Below, in pieces: positions 40,550 through 60,725 of a stretch of DNA of 64,000 nt. This stretch comes from Mobula hypostoma (lineage: Eukaryota). Position 1 is the first letter of the stretch, and each line of letters starts with the position of its first letter. The notes beneath the pieces were generated by a model. The model saw nothing but the letters and a program-made list of their open reading frames with translations. It was not told the origin of the DNA and ran no database searches. The position numbers and the translations under genes are program-made. Location of the stretch: positions 112,842,001 through 112,906,000 of the forward strand of contig NC_086097.1 of assembly GCF_963921235.1 (NCBI RefSeq), given 5' to 3'.

Positions 40550-41455
40550 TTCATACTTTGGTAGAGTAGAGCTACTAGGACTTGATGTTTCAATCCCTAT
40601 GGTAAGTTGGCACTCTCGATGTTGGCAATGGGCTTGGAGTGGTGACAAAGAGGGAGGGTAGGTACGTCATCGGGGTCATCAGGTGGGCACCCTCCTTCTT
40701 TGATGTTTCATTGATAACCCACGACGTCTCCAGAGGGCTCAACGCTGTTACCTGGTGTCCCAGATGCATCCCCCTCAGTTCCATATCCTCCTGTCTTCAT
40801 CTTGCAGCCCAGTTGTTGTCTTTCCTTTTAATCCAAATCCAATTGCTGCTTTCTTCTGCTGCGTTTGACAAGGACTTGATTGCTTGTTGGAGGGAGTGAC
40901 CCCTCACCCCCATCTTCTTCAATAGACTGGTCGTAGATGTAGCAATGAATCCCCTGCATCCCACTTCTACAGGGAAAATCTTGGTCTTCCAGCCATTCTG
41001 GGCAGCTTCAATTGCCAGTTCAGAGTACTTGGTCTTTTTCCTCTCATAAGCTTCTTCGACACCATCTTCCCATGGTACTGTCAATTCCACAACATATGCC
41101 AGCTTGGCTGTTGTGGACCACAGGACCATGTCTGGCCGGAGTGTTGTAGCCGCAATGTCTGGGGGAAACACAAGCTTTTTTTTCCCAAGTCCACGTCCAT
41201 TTTCCAATCCCGAGCAACCTGCAGAATGCTTACATCTTTTGATGTTATATGGTGCTCTGGAGGTTGGCCTGCTGGTACAAATCGTGTGATGTGGACATTT
41301 CCTGCCGATGTTTGTGGGAGAGCATTTGTGGTGATTCACCTCTGTTCCAAGATTGATGCCAGCTGTCTGAGAACTTGGTTATGCCGCCAAGTGTACCACC
41401 CCTGGGTGAGGCTCGTGGTGCATCCTGTTAAAATGTGCCTTAGTGATCCAGGTGT
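40550..41455 (-). mobile_element. HERO-clade (R2 superfamily, RLE) non-LTR retrotransposon 3' end, copy A
   Basis: HILTGC..QGWYTWRHNQVL (CCHC tail) and TTLRPDMVLWS..VELTVPWE..ERKKTKY..GW..FPVEVGCRGF (PD-(D/E)xK restriction-like endonuclease). Stop at 40797. Confidence 0.88.
40668..40738 (-). ncRNA. Permuted (pseudoknotted) hammerhead-like motif in the HERO 3' UTR, copy A
   Basis: GCCCTCT-GGA-GACGTC^-GTGGGT-TATCAAT-GAAACATC-AAAGAA-GGAGGGT-GCCCAC-CTGATGA-CCCCGATG. Confidence 0.7.
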
Positions 41456-49574: not shown

Positions 49575-50130
49575 GGAGGAGAAGATGGTGGTGACAGCCG
49601 TGAGAAGCATGGAGGAACACCTGGAGTAACCTCTGAAATGACGGCTTCGCTGCCGCTGCTACTGTGCGATCGAGAATCTCCAGAGGGGAAGTCTCCAAGT
49701 CCTTGGCTTTGCCTATTGTCTGTTGCCGGGGCCAGGCTCGAAGTGCTCGACAGAGATGGTGCTCGGTGCTCGGTGTTGGAGAGTTGGTCGGAGGCTCAGA
49801 GTTTTCAGACGGACTCAGAGTCGGACTGTGGTCGGATGCTTCCGGGATGCTGCATCGGCAAGTTGGCGGCGCTGGAGGTTTACCGTCTGTGTGAGATGAT
49901 GGGACTTTCGAAAGACTTTGAGACTTTTACCGTGCCATGGTCTGTTCATATCAAATTACAGTATTGCTTTGCACTGTTGTAACTATATGTTATAATTATG
50001 TGGGTTTTGTTAGTTTTTCAGTCGGTTTGTCATGTGTTTCTGTGATACCATTCTGGAAAAATATTGTATCATTTCTTAATGCATGCATTACTAAATGACA
50101 ATAAAACAGGACTGTGTGTCCTCATAATCT
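49575..50130 (+). mobile_element. Non-autonomous retroposon, copy 3 (internally deleted)
   Basis: GGAGGAGAAGATGGTGGTG head with the same body and GTCCTCATAATCTAA tail. Confidence 0.8.
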
Positions 50131-50777
50131 AATTAAAAATAAGCTATTAAGCTTCTTGCTCTTCCACCTGCAACCCCACCTCCTGGAGTCCTTAAATTCA
50201 TGTTCAACTGAATGGGAATTTCTGGATCTACAGACAGATAACTCAACAACTCCACAAAGCATCCAGCAACTGAGTACAGCAGAGAACCAGCTGGCAGAGC
50301 CCAGCTGGCAAATGTGATTTCCACACCTAGGCTTTGATCCAGCCCCTCGGTGGGGAAATGCCAGCCATTTCATTTGTAAACAATGCCATTTACCAATTAA
50401 AACTCCATGGTAATCTTTATTTGATGTTTATCTGCTGCTGATTCTTTTCTCTTGAATTGTTCATCTTTCTATGTGTTTACCTTAACTGCTCCCTTTCTCT
50501 AAAGGACACGGAAATGCCATGGCTGCATTCAGTTGAATCCCATCAGTGGGCAGACCGTCTTCAGTTAGTATGCCTATCCTACAGATCAGTTTCTGTTCTC
50601 AGAATTACAAAGTAAATGGAATCGTTTCTCAGCAGGAGAAACAATGCACTAAGATCACCCAGTTACTTTAAATTGGGAAAAATAAATCTTGAAATAATTC
50701 CCCATAAATACATTGTAATCCACAAAACTGCCATTGTTTAAACTGGTTCATTGTTCTAGCATATATTTTCCCATGCA

Positions 50778-50932
50778 GGGTTGCACAGTAGTGTAGCAGT
50801 TAGCACAATGCCTTACAGCATCATCTGTAAGATCGGGGTTCGATTCTGTAAGGAATCTGTACATTTCCTCCCTCATCGAGTGGTTTTTCTCCAGGTGCTC
50901 TGGTTTCCTCCCACATTCCAAAGACATACCGT
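50778..50932 (+). mobile_element. tRNA-derived SINE
   Basis: GTAGTGTAGCAGTTAGCAC, GGGTTCGATTC and TTTCCTCCCACATTCCAAAGAC. Confidence 0.75.
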
Positions 50933-51068
50933 GACAATAGACATAGACAATGCAGAGAAACCTGTGGCCATTCCTCTCAAAGACAGGCATTCAGATTTGG
51001 ATGCTGTTGGGTGAGCGGGGACCTTACCAGGGGAAAGCCACAACGACCGGGTCTCTGGCACTGAATCT

Positions 51069-52895
51069 TTACTTCACTTTACTTTACTTTATAGTCGCCA
51101 AACAATTGATACTAGAGCGTACAATCATCACAGCGATATTTGAATCTGCGCTTCGTGCTCCCTGGAGTACAAATCGATAGTAAAAAGTAAAAATTTAAAT
51201 TATAAATCATAAATAGAAAATAGAAAAGGGAAAGTAAGGTAGTGCAAAAAACCGAGAGGCAGGTCCGGATATTTGGAGGGTATGGCCCAGACCCGGGTCA
51301 GGATCTGTTCAGCAGTCTTATCACAGTTCGAAAGAAGCTGTTCCCAGATCTGGCCGTACAAGTCTTCAAGCTCCTGAGCCTTCTGCTGGAGGGAAGAGAG
51401 ATGAAAAGTGTGTTGGCTGGGTGGGTCGTGTCCTTGATTATCCTGGCAGCACCGCTCCGACAGCGTACGGTGTAAAGTGAGTCCAAGGACGGAAGATTGG
51501 TTTGTGTGATGTGCTGGGCTGTGTTCACGATCTTCTGCAGCTTCTTCCGGACTTGGACAGAACAACTTCCATACCAGATTGTGATGCACCCTAGAAGAAT
51601 GCTTTCTATGGTGCATCTATAAAAATTAGTGAGGGTTTTAGGGGTCATGCCAAATTTCTTTAGCTTTCTCAGGAAGTAAAGGCACTGGTGAGCCTTCTTG
51701 GCAGTGAACTCTGCTTGTTGGACCAAATCAGGTTATTTCTGAAATTGACGCCGAGGAACTTAAAGCCTTTGACCTGTTCCACTTGCGCACCACTGATATA
51801 AATGGGGTCGTGCGGTCCGCTACTCCTTCTGAAGGCAACAACAAATTCCTTTGACTTGCTGACGTTGAGGAATAGGTTATTGTTTTCGCACCATGCCACC
51901 TGTTCTTAATTTCCTCTCTGTACTCAAACTCATCATTACCCAAGATATGGCCTACAATTGTGTCATCAGCAAACTTATATATTGAGTTCGATAGAAACTT
52001 GGCTACACAATCATGGGTGTACAGTGAGTACAACAGGGGGCTGAGTACACAGCCTTGTGGGGCACCAGTGCTCAGAGTGATTGTAGAGGAGAGCTTGTCC
52101 CCTATTTTTACAGCCTGGGTCCTGTTTGTGAGGAAGTTGAAGATCCAGCTGCAGATCTGAGCGCTAAGGACCAGGTCCCGGAGCTTAGGAATCAGTTTAT
52201 TTGGAATGCTGGTATTAAAGGCAGAGCTGTAGTCAATGAAAATGAGCCTTACGTATGTGTCTTTATTCTCCAGGTGTTCTAAGGAGGAATGTAGGGCCAG
52301 AGAGATGGCATCTGCCATTGACCTGTTGCTCCAGTAGGCGAATTGCAAAGTGTCAAGGTTGACCGGTAGGCTGTGGTTGATGTGTGCCATAACCAATCGC
52401 TCGAAGCACTTCATAGAAATTGATGTCAGAGCCACAGGTCGATAGTCATTCAGGCATGCCACCGTGCTCTTCTTCGGCACCAGGATTATCGTTGCCTTCT
52501 TAAAGCACGAGGGGATCTTAGACTGAAGCAAGGAGCAGTTGAAGATGTCGGCAAACACTCCAGCTAGCTCGCTTGCACAGGCCCGGAGAACCCGTCCCAG
52601 GACGCCATCTGGGCTCGTCGTCTTCCCTGGATTTATCTTCAAGAAAGCCCTTCTAACGTCCTCCTCAGTGCCGATGAATCTCGATGCCACCAGGTCTGGT
52701 TCATCCAGAGGAGCGGGACACTCCTCTTCTGTTCGACTCTTGCGTAGAATATGTTAAGTTCGTCAGGAAGAGAAGTGCCACAGTTATTGATAGTCCCAGC
52801 CTTTTCTTTGCGCCCAGTGATCTCATTTAGACCCTGCCATAGTCTACCGGCATCCCTCTGGTTATCCTGGGCTTCCAACTTGCTCGATATTTGAA
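51069..52895 (-). mobile_element. Young Rex/Babar-type LINE (RT, 5'-truncated)
   Basis: [50 protein letters not shown] and KFADD motifs. (TAAAG)n tail; TSD GAATCT (51063-51068 / 52896-52901). Confidence 0.95.
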
Positions 52896-55589
52896 GAATC
52901 TGGCTCTGTGGCTCAAAAGGGAGGTTGGCAGAAAAGGAGTGTAGTGGTGATAGGGCAGACAGGAGTTTCTGTGGGTGTGAAAGAGACAACCAGATGATAT
53001 GTTGGTGCCCAGGTGCCAAGGTCAGGGATGTCTCAGATCAGCTTAACAGTACTCTAAAAGGTGAGAGTGAAGAGTCAGAAGTTGTGGTATGCATTGTTAC
53101 CGGTCACATAGTAGTGAAAGCAGTAGGGTCCAGAAGTGAGAATATAGGGAGCGAGGTAGAAAGCTGAAAAACAGGACCTTCAGGGTAGTAATCTCTGCAT
53201 TTATGACTGCACCATGTGCCAGTGAAGGTAAGAATAAGATGATTTGGCAGAAGAACTTGTGGCTGAGTAACTGTGTGGGGGCACGGTTTTAGAATTCCGG
53301 ATTATTGGGATCTCTTCTGTAGAAGGTATGACCTGGTGAAGAAAGACAGGTTACTCCTGAATACAGGGGACCAATATTCTTGCTACACCTGGTGGAGTGG
53401 GTTTGAACTAAGTTGGTATACAAGTAGATGCTGTGTGTAGTGAGACAGTGAGCAAGAACAGGTAGATAATAGGGCAAAATTGCAGTCAGTGGGGTTGGTT
53501 GAAGTGGATCTTTAAACTGCATAATAGGAGAGGGATTCAACAGTATGGAAATGTGAAGATGAAGTAAAAGGGAAGGAGAATGGAAAAGAGGTTATGAAAT
53601 CCCCAGAATAAATAAACTAAGAAGTTTAAAAAAGGTTAAGAATTTAACTTCCAGTAACATGGAGGCAAGATTGAAAAGAGTTACAGTACTGAGGTGTTAT
53701 ATTTGAATGCACACAGTATACAGAATACGGTAGATGATCTTGTAGCGCAGTTAGAATTTGTCAGGTACGAGTTGTGGACATCACTGAAAGAAAATCACAG
53801 TTGTAAGCTGAACATCCAAAGATACTCATTGTATTGAAATGACAGGCAGGTAGGCAGCGAGGGAAGCATGGCTATGTTGGTCAATATGAAATCAAATCCT
53901 CAGAAGAGGTGACATCGGATTGGAAGATGTAGAATCCTTGTGGATAGAGTAAAGAAACTGCAAGGGTAAGAAGACCCTGATGTAAGTTATATACAGAACT
54001 CCGAACAGTATCCAGGATGTGGGATACAAATTACAGTGGGAGATAGAAAAGGGCAATGTTATGATAGTCATGGGGATTTCAAATTGCAGGGAGATTGGTA
54101 AAATCAATGTGGTGCTGGATTGAAGAAAAGGAATTTATAGAATGTCCATGAGATGGCTTTTTAGAGCTACTTGTGGGGTTGACTCCATTGGGGAAAAGGC
54201 ATTTCTGATTTGATTAGGGAGCTTAAAGTACAGGAATCCTTCGGAGTCAGTGATCATATGTTAGAATTCTCCTTGCAATTTGAGAAGGAGAAGCTAAAAT
54301 TAGATGTATCAGTGTTACAGTGGAGTAAAGGAAATGACAGAGGCATGAGTGAGGAGCTGGCCAAAGTTGATAGTAGCAGCAAAAGTGACAGAACAGCAAT
54401 GCTTGAGTTTCTGGAATCAAATAAGAAGGTGCAGGATAAGCTCATTCCAAAGAAGTATTCTGAAGAGAGGATGAGACAACCTTGGCTGACAAGGGAAGTC
54501 AAAGACAACATGACAGCAAAAGAATAAAATGAAGCATGATAAACAATGGGAAGTTACAGGATTGGGAACCTTTTAAAAACAAACATAGGCAAATGACAAA
54601 AACGATATGAAGAGAAAACAAGAAATATGAAGGTAGACTAGCCAATAATATAAAAAACGGTACCAGAAGTTTCTTTAGATATACTGTATAAAGAGTAAAA
54701 AACAGGTGAGAGTGGATATTGGATGACTGGAAAATGACGCTTGAGAGATAGTAATGGGGGAACAAAGAAATGGTGGATAAACTTAATAATTATTTTGCAT
54801 CAGTCTTCACTGTGGAAGACACCAACATCATGGCAGATATTCAAGAGCGTCAGGGGAAGATGTGAGTGTAGTTGATATTATTACGGAGAAGGTGTTTGGG
54901 AGGCTGGAATGCCTGAAGATAGATAAACCTTCTGGACCAGATGGACTACACTCCAGGGTTATAAAGGAAGTAGCTGAAGAGATTGTGGAGGTATTATTAA
55001 TGATCTTTCATGAATCAACTAGACTCTGGAATGGTTTCAGAGGTTTGGAAAATCATAAATGTCACTCCATCCTTTAAGAAGAGAGGGAGGCAGAAGAAAA
55101 TAAATTATAGGCCAGTTAGCCTTACCTCAGAATTTGGGAAGATGTTGGAGTCCATTATTAAAGATGAAGTTTCAGGGTACTCAAGGGACATATTAAAATA
55201 GGCCAAAGTCACCATAGTTTCCTATGTGGAAATCTTGCCTGGCAAATCTGAGGGAATTCTTTGAGGAAATAACAGGCAAGATAGACAAAGGGGAGTCAGT
55301 GGAGGTCATTTATTTGGATTTTCAGACAGTCTTCGACAAGGTGCTGCACTTGAGGCTGCTAAAAAAGGCAAGATCCCATGGTATTACAGGAAAGATACTA
55401 GCATGGATAGAAGATTAGCCGACCAGAGGCAAACTGGAAGAATATAGGGGCCTTTTCAGATTGGCAGCCAGTGACTGGTGGTGTTCCACGGGGGTTGGTG
55501 TTTCGACTGCTTCTTTTCACATAGATATCAATGATTTGAATGATGGAATTGATGGTTTTACGTTAAGTTTGATGGATGATTCAAAGATT

Positions 55590-55900
55590 TAATTGCTCTC
55601 CTGTTATTACTACCATCAGATAGGAGGTTCAGGAGTCTGAAGACAGACTCGCAACAATTTAGAAACAGCTTCTTCCTATCTGCCATCAGATTTCTGAATG
55701 GACAGCAAACCAGCCCATGAACACTACCTCACTATCTTTGCTCCTTTTGTAGTACTTATTTAAATTAAGTTTTTTATATGTACAGTATTGTTTCTTGTAA
55801 ATTATAGTATCTTTACGTACTGCACTGCCACTGTAAAACAACAATTTTCATGACATTTCTCAGAGATAATAAACCTGTTTCTGACTTTAATTCTAATTCT
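55590..55900 (+). mobile_element. Rex/Babar-type LINE 3' end nested in CR1
   Basis: LLPSDRRFRSLKT..FRNSFFLSAIRFLN and AATAAACCTG-(ATTCT)n-like tail. Confidence 0.7.
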
Positions 55901-56362
55901 GATAGGTGGCAGGGTAGGTCTTGTTGAGGAAGCAGGGTGTCTGCAGAAGGGCTCAGATAGATTGGGAGAATGGGCAAAGACATGGCAGCTGGAATACAGT
56001 GTAGGCATGGGTATGGTCATGCATTTGGTAGAAGGAATAAAGGTGTAGACTATTTTCTAAATGGAAAGCAAATTCAGAAATCAGAGGTAAAAAGGGACCT
56101 GGGAATCCTTGTGCAAGGCTCCCTAAAGGTTAAGTTGCAGGTTGAGTTGGTGGTGAGGTGATCAAATGCAAAATTGACAATTATTTCAAGAGTACTAGAA
56201 TGTAAAAGCAAGAATGTAATATTAAGGCTTTAGAAGGATGGTCAGACTGCACTTGGAGCATTGCAAGCAGATTTGAGCCCTTTATCTAAGGGATGTGCTG
56301 GCATTGGAAAGGGTACAGAGGAGGTTCATGACAATGATTCTGGGAATCAAAGAGTTAACATA

Positions 56363-56866
56363 TTAACATTAAGATTGGAGTGCAGAGACAGAGGGTGGGA
56401 GGTCTCAAGCTATCCATTCGAAGTAGGCTGCCGTGGGTTTATTGCGTTCACTTTCCAGAAGTGGCTGCGTGACCTTGGCTTCACTAGAAGAGAGATCAGT
56501 CATCCAGCAGGGCTTTAGCTGAGGCAGCAGAGAAAGGATCAGCACAGGTGTGGACCAAGTATGTCCAGAGGGGCAGATAGTCAGACAGTGTATACATATC
56601 TCGCAAGCCCTTCAGTAGCTGCATAGACACCTGAAGAGCAGGCTATCTGTTGGATGGAAGTGACCAACAACTCTGATAGAGGCAGATGCCAAGTTTTTAA
56701 GCTCACCAGTGGGAGGTGGTGCTTTAGCACTGCTGGTCCACCACCTCGAGGGAGTCTTGATCATAAGCGGGCCGAAACTCCTGAAGACAGGTGGCAGATC
56801 AACTGATGATCCCATTGGTGATAGCACAGAACAGTTAACATCTTAGTCCGTGTATTTTTTAACTCT
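56363..56866 (+). mobile_element. HERO-clade retrotransposon extreme 3' end, copy B (divergent family), nested in CR1
   Basis: LRLECRDRGWEVSSYPFEVGCRGFIAFTFQKWLRDLG..AEAAEKGSAQVW matches the RLE C-terminus of copy A. CR1 resumes at TATGAGGAA. Confidence 0.8.
56741..56813 (+). ncRNA. Permuted (pseudoknotted) hammerhead-like motif in the HERO 3' UTR, copy B
   Basis: CCACCT-CGAG-GGAGTC^-TTGATC-ATAAGCGGGCC-GAAACTCC-TGAAGAC-AGGTGG-CA-GATCAA-CTGATGA-TCCC. Confidence 0.75.
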
Positions 56867-59856
56867 ATGAGGAATGGTTGATTGCTCTGTCTCTATAATC
56901 ACTGGAGTTTAGAAGAATGAGAGGGGATCTCATTAAAACCTATTGGAAATTGAAAGGGCTAGATAAACTGGACATGGAAGAGTATGTTTCCTATGGTTTG
57001 GGACTCTAGGACCAAAGGGCACAGCCTCAGGATAGGAGATGTCCCTTTAGAACAGAGATGAGGACTTTCTTTAGCTAGAGGGTAGTGAATCTGTGTAATT
57101 TGTTGCCACAGACAGTTGTGGAGGAAAAGTTATTGGGTATATTTAAAGCAGAGGTTGATATGTTCTTGATTAGTTAAAGGTTTCAGAGAGAAGGCAGGAG
57201 ACTGGAGAGGAGGGATTGAGAGGGATAATAAATCGGTCATGGTGGAATAATGGAGTATTCTCAGTGGGCTTTATGGACTAATTCTGTTTCTATGTCTTCT
57301 GATCTAATCGACAAAAAACACCGCTGTTACTCCTCAGGAAAGATACTCCAAAAGTAGCATCTAAACCTGCTACCTCTGCTGCCAAGCAACATGAGGTCCT
57401 TTTGCCGGGCCTAAATTCCCAAATTCCCTCTCCATCGACACTCTGGGAGTATGTTCATGGAAAAACAGCAGCAGATGAAGAAGGTGACTCCCAAGCTTCA
57501 CATCGCCAAGGATGATGAAGGATGGATAGTAAATGCCAAGCTTGCCACTGGCACCAGCAATTCAATTAAAAAAAATAACTTACACAAAAATTCCTTATTA
57601 CAATAGTGGACAGGTTTCTAAAATGCTTTGATTATAAAGCACTTCAGGATTTCTTGAAGGTGATGTGGTTAATAAATTGGGATCTTATTGGTCTTTACTT
57701 TTAAATTTGTCTTAAGATCTGCTAGGCACTGTGAAAACTGAAGAATTAGTCAGATGCAAGTGTCTTGTATTCAGGTGGTATGAACAATCTATTGGAATTC
57801 TACAAAGTCCATTCACATCTGTGATTCACCCTCCCTCTCATGCACTAAATATGCAAGAATATAATCTAACTACTGAAATGAGTTCAGCTTGCATATTGTT
57901 GCAAGTCTAGTGCATGCAGCTGAGCATGATGTATTAAATGGCAAAATATTAAATCGCAAATCAGAAGTAATGCCTTTGACATTTTATTTTTCTGTACAGC
58001 TATCGTATTCAAATAAGACCAATGAAAAAGAATCAGATAGCCATTCTACTGTCTCCCTGTAATGATTTCTGTATCTGTTTATCTGCAGTACCAAGGATTA
58101 ACATGCTCAAAATACAAGCGGACAAATGTCCTTCAAACATAATAAGGTAATTCAATAACCTAGCACATTTCCATTCATTAAGGATACGATTTTTATTTTA
58201 TTTGCATGCAAGTTTTGGTTGCTCTTTTAATTCAACATCACTTCTATTTATCATGTCTGAGGGCTGATTATTCTGTGATAAGTATTTTTTGTCCACGTGC
58301 AAGTTTTCTGATGCCAGCTGACAGACCTTAGAGTGCAACTGGACTAATATAAATCTAGCATGACAAATTTAAATTTAAAACAATTGAAAGATTATGGTTC
58401 CTTTTATGTTATTGCTGAACTGGGTTAGATTAATGTCGGCTAACACATAACATGAATATTTTAAGCAGTGCGCTTAAGATTGCAAGCAATGAAAAAATAT
58501 CCTGTAGCAGTCACAAGGTCAGACATTGCTTTTCCATCCATTCACTTACCACGTAACACTAAAGAATCATTTGGTATCTCTTTTCCTGCATAACCTGCAC
58601 AACCCTAGCACTTCTGGCAGCAGATCTTGTAACAGTTTACTGTTCTCCCTGTAAGCAAGGAGCTGGTTCAATGCTCCACCATGAAGATTTTATGGTGTGA
58701 TGTCCAAAAGCAGTTTGTATGAGCAAAGAGATTGTTGTGCCTCTCATCCTACAGATAATGACATGGTTAAAACAACTCATTAAAAATTACACATCTCTGC
58801 ACAGCAGTGTATCAATAATTACAGCGCGTAGCTTTGTCAGCTCTGTGCTGCAAAAGAAACTTAAACACTTCTTGCTATTAATGAAAGATTCATTCAAGAC
58901 ACAAAAGGTTGAAAACTACAACGAATCACACAACAGGAAATGAAAACCAAAACACAAAATATTTGCCAGAGACAGAAAACTAAATCATGTTTTCTGTTTC
59001 AGTCTTTTGCTGGTTATGTCTTCATTATTTATAGATACAAGCACTGGTTTCCAGCCAATGAGGTTGAATCCAAATGATTAAATATGTATGACATTCCTTG
59101 CTGTGATATAAAGAGCCTATTGTGCTTTAAGAATCATAAGTGTTTTGTTATACTCCTGTTCTCGTAGGAGTCTAGTGTACTAAATCTGACTCTGGGAATC
59201 AATAGGACTATCAGATGCTGAATCCACCATATTCCCAGCACTAAAGGCGCTAAACAAAATTAAATCCATCCATCCAATTACAAGAGTTGCATTCCAACTT
59301 CGACTTCCATCTTCCAAATTATATCGAAGAATATAGATTTATTAACCCTAAAGAAATGAATATACTAATTTGGTTACATACTTAATAAATCCACTACCTA
59401 AATTTGACTATTTAAACAAAAATTCTATGTGAAAGTATGCTTTCAATCTCTACTTTCTTGCTTTGGTGTAAATTATTTAAAAAAACACTTTCACGTGGCA
59501 TTGTGACAAGGTTTACATGAAGTTAAACAATGCCATGTAATCTCAGAAAGAGAGAGCTCCTGGAGATGTTCCTATGTGGTTCTTGCATAATGCAAATGAT
59601 ACTTGTCATAGCAGGCCAAAACTGAAGGTCTTTTTAAATCAGCTGCCAGCACTGGCACACCCATTGGTCCATATGGCAGGCAAGTATTTAGTCAAGTCAA
59701 GTCAAGTTTATTGTCATTTATCCATATACATGTATACCTTCAAATGAGATGGTGTAAACCACAGTAGTACACATAACACACATATAACACAATAATGCAT
59801 AGATAAACAAAATAGAGTGTATAAACTAAATATTATATGATACAGCACAAATTATC

Positions 59857-60725
59857 TAGTGGCAAACTCTTCTCGGGCTCCCAGCTGGGTACAGGTGTCA
59901 ATTACAACGTGTTCATTACAAACTCTGCCATCTTCATCAGGGATGTTATACCTAGGTATGTCTAGTCCGGTGGTATTCATAACCCCGTCATCCGTCCCTC
60001 CCGATTGGTTAGTCCTCATCCAATCAGGTTTCTGCTTTCTCACCTTGGATCAAATTCCAGTTCTTACTTAGAGCGAGACCTTCGTCTTTGTTAAAAGTAT
60101 TTTCCTCCAGTTTTATTTCAATAGTTTCCTTCACCAGGCAGCCCCAAAAGCCATTGGCACAGAATAGTAGTTTTGTGCCATCAAAGACAATCCTATAGCC
60201 ATGGCGAATGCAGTGTTCTGCTGACGCCGATTTCTCCAGGTAACCCAAACTGATACACCTCCTGTAATCCTTGATGCGGGTTTCCACCGTGCATTCCGTC
60301 TGGGTGACGTATGCTGCTTCACCTTCACAGGGAGTCCTGTAAGCGCCAGCCAGCGTAGCTTACCCGGAGGAATCGGCAGTAGCAGAGCACTGCATTCACA
60401 ATGGCTATAGGATTAACTACAGTGGCACAAAACTACTGTGCTGCACTAACGGCTTTGGGACCTCCTGGTAAAGGAAGCCATTGAAATAAAACTAGAGAAA
60501 AAGAATTTTAACAAATTCGAAGGTCTTGCTCTATGTAAGAACTGGAATTCGATTGTAACCAAGGTGGGACAGTGGAACCCTGATTAGATGAGGACTAACC
60601 AATCAGGAGGGACAAACTATGGGAGTATACATACCACTGGACTAGAAATGCCCAGGCATCATCTCTGATGAAGATGGCAGAGTTTGTCATCGAAACGTCA
60701 GTTATAATCAATGCCTTTACTCAGA
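59857..60725. mobile_element. Penelope/Poseidon-type element as a divergent inverted duplication (GIY-YIG C-terminus plus terminal repeat on both strands)
   Basis: Minus arm: GAYRTPCEGEAAYVTQT..VETRIKDYRR..KSASAEHC..KETIEIK..FNKDEG. The plus arm (60360-60725) repeats the same region in the opposite orientation. Confidence 0.88.
60661..60703 (+). ncRNA. Minimal type-I hammerhead ribozyme (PLE family 2), core intact
   Basis: CTGATGA(60665-60671)-A-GATGGCA[GAGTT]TGTCATC-GAAA(60692-60695)-CGTC^. 7-bp stem II closed by G-C; palindromic ACGT helix III; stem I is weak. Confidence 0.75.

Follow-up and report, generated by a model that had tools for sequence, protein, structure and literature searches.

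A hammerhead-type ribozyme candidate with an opened core in HERO-like retrotransposons, and a proposed circular-template cycle

The hammerhead ribozyme has been treated as a combination of three blocks, C, G and S, each assumed to be uninterruptible, from which six orders were derived (Eckert et al. 2023, PMC10085705; published sources are cited here and below for the accessible parts of their text). One of these orders, type SGC, is described there from metatranscriptomes only, with no examples from the genomes of known organisms besides one bacterial GCS candidate, and our literature search on type SGC found only this original description. The published RNAMotif pattern for this type (PMC10085705) requires CUGAUGA(U)G followed by a strand of stem II, and its optional U after A9 suggests that the backbone tolerates an insertion at that point. 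A helix at A9/G10.1 does not appear in the accessible text of Perreault 2011 or Forgia 2023, and a 2026 paper mentions hammerhead variants with additional helices, giving no detail in its accessible portion (further sources: PMC3088659, PMC13725137, PMC4640811, PMC3636483, PMC10162972, PMC2684134). This literature gave no precedent for a hammerhead that is active with a helix inserted between A9 and G10.1.

Penelope-like elements (Frangieh et al. 2024, PMC11167929; PMC6765202) are autonomous and target-primed, have a hammerhead near the unit junction, occur as partial-tandem copies and start reverse transcription internally; they encode a GIY-YIG protein, and their hammerheads have minimal or atypical motifs and lie in pseudo-LTRs. 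Retrozymes (Cervera et al. 2016, PMC4918200; Cervera and de la Pena 2020, PMC7229834) have hammerhead direct repeats, a circular RNA intermediate and cDNA of variable length, and are non-coding, non-autonomous elements of ~170-750 nt with type I or III hammerheads. R2 elements bear a ribozyme at the unit boundary, insert site-specifically and have their 5′ end set by an HDV-like ribozyme (PMC13580325, PMC7650587).

The window analysed here is a stretch of 64,000 nt from Mobula hypostoma, and it holds copies of two HERO-like element families (A and B), each with a candidate ribozyme (Table 1). As in type SGC and HRIMA-1, the cyclic order is cleavage block, GAAA block, CUGANGA, the link from stem I to stem II is short, and a helix joins the other sides of both stems (PMC10085705). 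Unlike in type SGC, block C is in two parts, with the stem II strand upstream and a P0/P0a junction inserted between A9 and G10.1. The elements differ from Penelope-like ones in having a reverse transcriptase (RT) of the R2 group, with a restriction-like endonuclease at the C-terminus, and a pseudoknotted hammerhead that is large and fully paired, and from retrozymes in that the unit measures 3.85 kb and encodes its own enzyme. With R2 they share the superfamily and the placement of a ribozyme at the unit boundary, but they have no 5′ ends at the cut site, unrelated flanks and a ribozyme of another class. A literature search, with most subscription journals, Repbase and Dfam outside its reach, returned no report linking HERO and the hammerhead, and the ribozyme, its connectivity and the mechanism proposed below appear to be new.

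Structure and conservation of the candidate ribozyme

The initial annotation described a rearranged, pseudoknotted hammerhead core ~160 nt after the RLE ORF, in the 3′ UTR of a HERO retrotransposon. All the motifs it named sit at the positions given for them, the stop codon TAG (56578-80) lies 161 nt before 56741, and the core proved to be conserved and covarying across families. In the window the core is intact (C3 U4 G5 A6 N7 G8 A9, G12 A13 A14 A15.1, U16.1 and H17), two G-U substitutions are present, and RNAfold folds both P0 and P0a unaided. A descriptor made of the core order, a 4-bp helix I and helix III has one match in the window, with 0.02 expected per 64 kb (100 Markov resamples), and once the upstream helix II is added 0 of 100 Markov resamples match. 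Searched with Rfam 15, window positions 50000-60000 match no hammerhead at E<=5; the opening of the core at A9/G10.1 would explain why both Rfam and the published patterns miss the ribozyme. Since the true helix II strand lies upstream and P0 pairs around the core, the ribozyme spans 56703-56821 and thus runs past the extent first assigned to it (56741..56813), and the transcript proposed at that stage for cleavage assays, 56735-56830, is without the P0 5′ strand and hairpin P0a.

Table 1. Features of the two HERO-like copies in the window (window coordinates)
Feature	Position	Strand	Evidence
Family A RLE-type LINE copy, 5′-truncated, ~500 bp	56369..56865	+	94% identity to full-length copy
C-terminal end of RLE ORF, frameshifted in window copy; stop TAG 56578-80	56369..56580	+	
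P0, 5′ strand; partner 56810-56821, 12 bp	56703..56714	+	RNAfold
Hairpin P0a, abuts G10.1; fourth junction arm	56715..56734	+	
Helix II, 5′ strand GGTCC; G10.1 = 56735	56735..56739	+	covariation
Stem I-stem II interaction helix, 5′ strand CCACCT	56741..56746	+	covariation
Helix III, 3′ strand, with NUH triplet GUC (GGAGT-C); predicted cut after C56756	56751..56756	+	
Helix I, 3′ strand TTGATC	56757..56762	+	covariation
Helix II, 3′ strand GGGCC (56769-73); GAAA (56774-77); helix III, 5′ strand (to 56781)	56769..56781	+	
Interaction helix, 3′ strand AGGTGG	56789..56794	+	covariation
Helix I, 5′ strand GATCAA (56797-802); CUGAUGA (56803-09)	56797..56809	+	
P0, 3′ strand; begins right after A9	56810..56821	+	
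Fixed element 3′ end, no poly(A); presumed internal RT start	56855..56866	+	
Family B HERO-like copy, 5′-truncated, with RLE C-terminus	40565..41449	-	
Family B candidate ribozyme, same architecture	40672..40774	-	model match, E 1.7e-9 (training set contained the 81% relative L064)

Relatives were collected with a profile of the C-terminal region, which retrieved 383 from metagenome contigs (the best 80, at 34-48% identity, were used), and genome contigs added seven more, five of which were examined, for a total of 85 loci. The ribozyme motif was parsed in 54/85 loci overall, and in 43 of the 55 whose sequence runs for at least 300 nt past the ORF match. Two further loci have an intact but unparsed core (L054, L119) and four carry a single core change (L046, L082, L092, L099), the core being intact in 45 of the 49 loci with a recognisable motif among the 55 examined. 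No motif was found in six of these 55 (L050, L069, L104, L113, L120, L127); L050 breaks off within the motif, and L127 is a distant relative (26% identity).

After reduction to <85% identity, 46 distinct cores remained, the window's included (mean identity 54%), and were aligned with MAFFT from sequence alone. In this cross-family comparison the helices are conserved: the upstream helix II, the interaction helix and helices III and I are paired in 92.7% of 885 cells, both-side (compensatory) changes are found in 18 of the 20 pairs, and several pair types recur at most positions. Slid pairing registers reach 38-45%. The covariation value is 0.744 vs 0.18 after shuffling, and 0/500 shuffles reach it; these shuffles do not control relatedness, and the structure was drawn from the same 46 sequences. 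Helices I and III, both proposed at the outset, are paired in 97.3% and 98.3% of cells, with compensatory changes in each (5/5 pairs in helix I). The upstream register of helix II is paired in 92.2%, with both-side changes in four of its five pairs, and its upstream strand reads GGCCC in 57/60 family A loci (three places fetched twice). The interaction helix is paired in 85.3%, with both-side changes in all six pairs and a length of 6.5 bp vs 4.3 bp in the shuffle control.

Other parts of the first reading had to be revised. Its helix II (GGG/CCC, after CUGAUGA) pairs in 42.3% of cells, a level that 180 of 500 shuffles reach, and this downstream helix was rejected as being at chance level; a 3-bp downstream stem is present in 2/46 cores vs an upstream one in 37/46. 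The canonical G10.1-C11.1 pair, said to be missing, is there once helix II is taken as GGTCC (56735-39) with GGGCC (56769-73). CCACCT/AGGTGG, initially seen as an extension of helix III, more plausibly forms the stem I-stem II interaction helix and would be the equivalent of the SGC 'I' helix. Where the SGC pattern calls for its CUGAUGA(U)G and downstream strand, the window reads CUGAUGAUC; the required letters occur in 10/46 cores and the 3-bp downstream stem in 2/46. Plain membership of type SGC was rejected on block C.

Identity of the core letters across the 46 parsed cores is by construction, N7 and H17 excepted. H17 is C in 16 cores, A in 16, U in 13 and G in 1, an avoidance of G (1/46; P ~3e-5 at 25%) obtained with a parser that has no H17 filter, and N7 is U in 29, C in 9, A in 5 and G in 3.

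The core, P0, P0a and helix II form a gap-free four-way junction. A hairpin ends right before G10.1 in 42 of the 46 cores; with the position fixed by this hairpin alone, the first P0 pair forms in 38/42, and the first four P0 pairs are paired in 87.5% of cells vs 49% after shuffling. Among the 34 cores whose P0 has at least 6 bp, the three junction links are without an unpaired base in 31, 32 and 29, respectively. A9 therefore enters P0 and G10.1 lies ~67 nt upstream, where a hammerhead usually joins the two directly or by 1-2 nt. The hammerhead crystal structure has A9 paired with G12 and resting on the G10.1-C11.1 pair, an arrangement that could survive the opening here if the helices stack coaxially across the junction.

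Judged from the alignments, the motif is real, clade-wide and strongly covarying, a hammerhead-type RNA of animal R2-group retrotransposons with a connectivity that we found described nowhere, and the RNA very probably cleaves itself. Two of the loci with a core change, L046 and L082, are one family from two samples, in which U replaces C3 and all helices are kept. By eye, a tRNA-like stretch can be seen between the stop codon and the ribozyme in L073, L084, L087, L097, L103, L108, L118 and L121.

Host families and the shape of their copies

Family A has 1682 first-look candidates in the 3.48-Gb genome, 40 of which were scored, and its unit measures 3.80-3.87 kb where this could be determined. 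Long copies have one ORF, which encodes a zinc finger at the N-terminus and then the RT, a CCHC knuckle and a restriction-like endonuclease, in agreement with the HERO clade, where a single ORF has the RT followed by a CCHC knuckle and a PD-(D/E)xK-like endonuclease. Its closest relatives of solved structure are R2 proteins (E 4e-39). A Tetraodon protein, AAN12398.1 (which clusters with BAC82599.1), is 41% identical to the family A protein over 1080 aa and 69% identical to that of a ribozyme-bearing locus (L056). We take AAN12398.1 / BAC82599.1 to be Zebulon / HEROTn of Tetraodon nigroviridis, which by this identity belongs to the HERO-like family; the name HERO is used on this assumption and on 41-44% protein identity to the Tetraodon element. 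Zebulon reportedly retrotransposes as a partial tandem array (Bouneau and colleagues are said to have described this in 2003); if so, knowledge of the partial-tandem layout dates back to that year.

The 3′ flanks are unrelated in 30/30 family A loci, as in a clade with no fixed target site, and a target duplication is absent from 15 of 16 full-length insertions, the lone exception sitting in a tandem repeat. The window copy itself interrupts a decayed endonuclease/RT LINE (53600-56366 and 56866-56950), presumably CR1-like, which is in turn split by another repeat near 55620-55900.

The second family, B, has 1628 first-look candidates in the genome, and its protein is 34-48% identical to that of family A. 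Within its ribozyme in the window, G10.1 is at 40743, C17 at 40723, GAAA at 40709-06 and CUGAUGA at 40682-76. A genome search with the 5′ part of the related locus L064 gave no matches, because that part is not element.

The 3′ ends of the copies are fixed. In family A, 30/30 loci end within ~2 nt of one point, with no poly(A), 110-111 nt downstream of the predicted cut; in family B the fixed end is 159 nt past it. Simple 3′-end processing, as initially suggested for the ribozyme, does not fit these ends (110-159 nt past the predicted cut) or the copies, which read through the cut site: a query starting at the cut site matched 30 loci, every one of which extends upstream of it as well.

At the other end, the 3′-end sequence of long copies continues directly into the 5′ UTR. 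The junction was first seen in one of the first 30 loci, which runs from the 3′ end into the element's 5′ UTR and ORF, and a junction query returned 30 loci in which the join is likewise seamless and the 5′ repeat measures from 22 to >1500 nt (a sample biased by the query). The 5′ ends were mapped with queries that begin 90 nt inside the 5′ region, in samples that include the query's own locus. Among the best 30 of 224 family A loci, 23 pass the 3′-to-5′ junction, two start within 4 nt of it and five before reaching it; 15 pass the cut site, the nearest 5′ ends lying at +17, +18 and -30. Among the best 30 of 78 family B loci, 21 pass the junction and 11 the cut site, to which the closest 5′ ends lie at +15 and +23. 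No 5′ end falls within 14 nt of the cut site in these 30 family A and 30 family B loci, and 5′ ends set by the ribozyme as in R2 were rejected for both families. A direct repeat with two ribozymes is thus present in 15/30 (A) and 11/30 (B) long copies, the shortest of which lack P0. Both ends are present in 18 of 20 fetched family A insertions, and these 18 include no full tandem dimer; the longest measured 5′ repeat is ~1.69 kb.

Similar junctions occur elsewhere: of the 46 metagenome loci that have 90 nt or more of downstream sequence, 15 continue into a 5′ UTR motif or the N-terminal ORF, a count that short-read assembly could inflate by favouring such joins. The element is also present in contigs from RNA-type runs (four runs), one low-depth contig of which bridges the junction; contigs of this kind cannot show ends. 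In head-to-tail junctions the next ORF follows the ribozyme, which is thereby placed to serve as a 5′ or circularising ribozyme. The form of the copies suggests that the elements are copied from circular or end-to-end repeated RNA.

Two further features of the junction region were noted. In six of the 30 junction-query loci (L136, L137, L138, L152, L155, L157) the 5′ ends bunch 37-48 nt past the cut site, as if the RT paused on entering the knotted core. A conserved 5′ UTR motif, CCAGTGAC, is followed by short repeated hairpins with GAAAG/AATAG-like loops after the junction in many families (L015:1810-1900; metagenome loci L070, L073, L074, L075, L083, L088, L093, L094, L095, L100, L105, L109, L118), and may be a protein-binding or translation signal.

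The two repeats of an insertion resemble each other more than chance would have it. Non-consensus variants common to a 5′ repeat and its own 3′ end number 5.2 per kb vs 1.1 in mismatched pairs; counted as events with clusters collapsed, there are 25 vs 6.5 in derangements (0/3000 derangements; 16 insertions, a count that leaves out L232, with one cluster of 14 changes, and L225, with 51 nt of overlap). Ten variants private to one insertion occur in both its repeats. At 16 common markers, 30 comparisons of a 5′ repeat with its own 3′ end are informative, and the two agree in 12 of these (0.40) vs 116/699 (0.17) between insertions; 0.40 is reached in 1/5000 derangements. The other 18 of the 30 comparisons are discordant, and a pure single-circle model with identical repeats was rejected on this count.

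The common variants in the 3′ 1.5 kb of family A (L002-L030, L190-L239), at frequencies of 12-47%, are near linkage equilibrium, unlike clean LINE subfamilies; four-gamete failures amount to 131/231, a figure that includes the alignment-artefact columns 941-959 left out of the common-marker comparison. Such near-equilibrium implies frequent template switching or conversion, and taken with the marker discordance it requires that template switching, gene conversion or non-circular templates be added to any circle. From these sequence patterns, the RT probably switches templates often, or copies convert each other. Internally deleted copies with differing breakpoints keep the ribozyme end (L161, L164, L165, L167, L168, L175, L225). 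In 7/7 examined, the deletions have 0-4 nt of microhomology and no GT-AG ends; they are likely RT skips, and splicing was rejected as the source of the short derivatives.

A proposed circular-template cycle and its rivals

The best model, to which we give an even chance, is that the element is replicated through a circular RNA cut by the ribozyme and reverse-transcribed from an internal start with template switching. The ribozyme at its centre has its core opened between A9 and G10.1 by the P0/P0a four-way junction, a structure taken from covariation and presumed to be catalytic. A copy whose 5′ repeat passes the ribozyme carries two ribozymes one unit apart. Its transcript would be cut at both, releasing an RNA of ~3.85 kb with 5′-OH and cyclic-phosphate ends, which either the ribozyme or a host ligase would close into a circle. 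The element protein would nick the target DNA, with the RT presumably starting inside the unit, at the fixed point that lies 110-159 nt 3′ of the cut. It would then circle the template, displace its own cDNA and halt at random, often jumping to other templates (a step that recombination and the microhomology deletions support). The outcome would be seamless 5′ repeats of any length, which restore the two-ribozyme master. The junction might also be a switch that keeps the circle uncut during translation or copying. The window copy has one ribozyme only and so cannot itself found a circle.

The lack of a 5′ boundary, the sharing of private variants and the marker discordance would all be explained, because a circle plus switching accounts for all three. 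The same cycle has been described for retrozymes and proposed for Penelope-like elements, in the accessible accounts. For the Penelope-like element PAc, the accessible text has uncleaved RNA as the dominant in vitro substrate and hammerhead mutants that left insertion unimpaired, which counts against the circle model. Leaning slightly against it, we also entertain a wider reading, in which a whole LINE clade would replicate through a 3.85-kb circle by means of a hammerhead of a seventh connectivity, its A9/G10.1 junction serving as an on/off switch, with rolling reverse transcription from an internal start.

The results on PAc also bear on a serious, if less likely, alternative, that an active ribozyme frees a messenger for cap-independent translation, while insertion proceeds from uncleaved linear partial-tandem or multimeric RNA by internal initiation and switching renews the repeats. 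PAc behaves in this way in vitro, hammerhead cleavage boosts cap-independent translation in viral UTRs (both from the accessible parts of the sources), and the 5′ HDV-like ribozyme of R2 is cited as a parallel; in junction copies the cut falls a few hundred nt before the ORF. Pervasive recombination, with 18/30 marker comparisons discordant between repeats, and the 7/7 internal deletions with 0-4 nt of microhomology and no GT-AG would suit it too. Yet a linear template, having a 5′ boundary (a start site or cut site), should make 5′ ends pile up, which they do in neither family; full tandem dimers are absent from the 18 family A insertions with both ends, measured repeats reach at most ~1.69 kb, and ten private variants are common to both repeats.

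The two remaining alternatives concern what the fold does. It is improbable that a hammerhead-like fold which cleaves little or not at all is a platform that seats the RT on its internal start, like the R2 3′ UTR. Such a platform would go with the fixed 3′ end at a set distance downstream, with a backbone broken at A9/G10.1, uninterruptible in the block model as far as its accessible text goes, and with core substitutions in 4/49 recognisable motifs, among them C3U in two samples of one family; but G is avoided at H17 and N7 is free, which is the pattern expected from catalysis, and both G10.1-C11.1 and the stem I-stem II interaction helix are kept. We consider it very improbable that the cut yields a nicked, base-paired, non-covalent circle whose nick the RT jumps. 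Five helices would hold the cut products together and the R2 RT is reported, in the accessible text, to synthesise across non-continuous templates, but each failed jump would be expected to give a copy that starts at the cut site, and such copies number 0/30, 0/30 and 0/30 in three samples.

If the preferred reading of a ribozyme-cut circle copied from an internal start is true, non-circularly permuted hammerheads would (i) extend from uncharacterised environmental RNAs to animal genomes (in that of Mobula hypostoma, families A and B have >1,600 candidate sites each), and (ii) have a catalytic core that can be opened at a point thought uninterruptible. Partial-tandem LINE insertions would gain a mechanism that can be put to the test, and the elements provide a clean system for asking whether the hammerheads of autonomous retroelements make circular templates. 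For engineering, an RT that starts internally on a circle would be of interest for R2-type gene insertion, and a junction-bearing ribozyme for allosteric ribozymes.

Distribution of the elements

Viral contigs gave no relatives of the element protein, and the ribozyme architecture was found in 0 of 120 pattern loci among the matches listed in the viral contig scan. HERO-like or related RLE sequences occur in bacterial genome and MAG contigs (L123-L129), two of which carry the ribozyme (L128, L129); these are probably eukaryotic contamination. The family A protein is 64-68% identical to proteins from lancelet, sea-urchin and other assemblies (P0002-P0004, P0007, P0008, P0270, P0271) and only 40-50% identical to most fish elements, and horizontal transfer of family A is possible.
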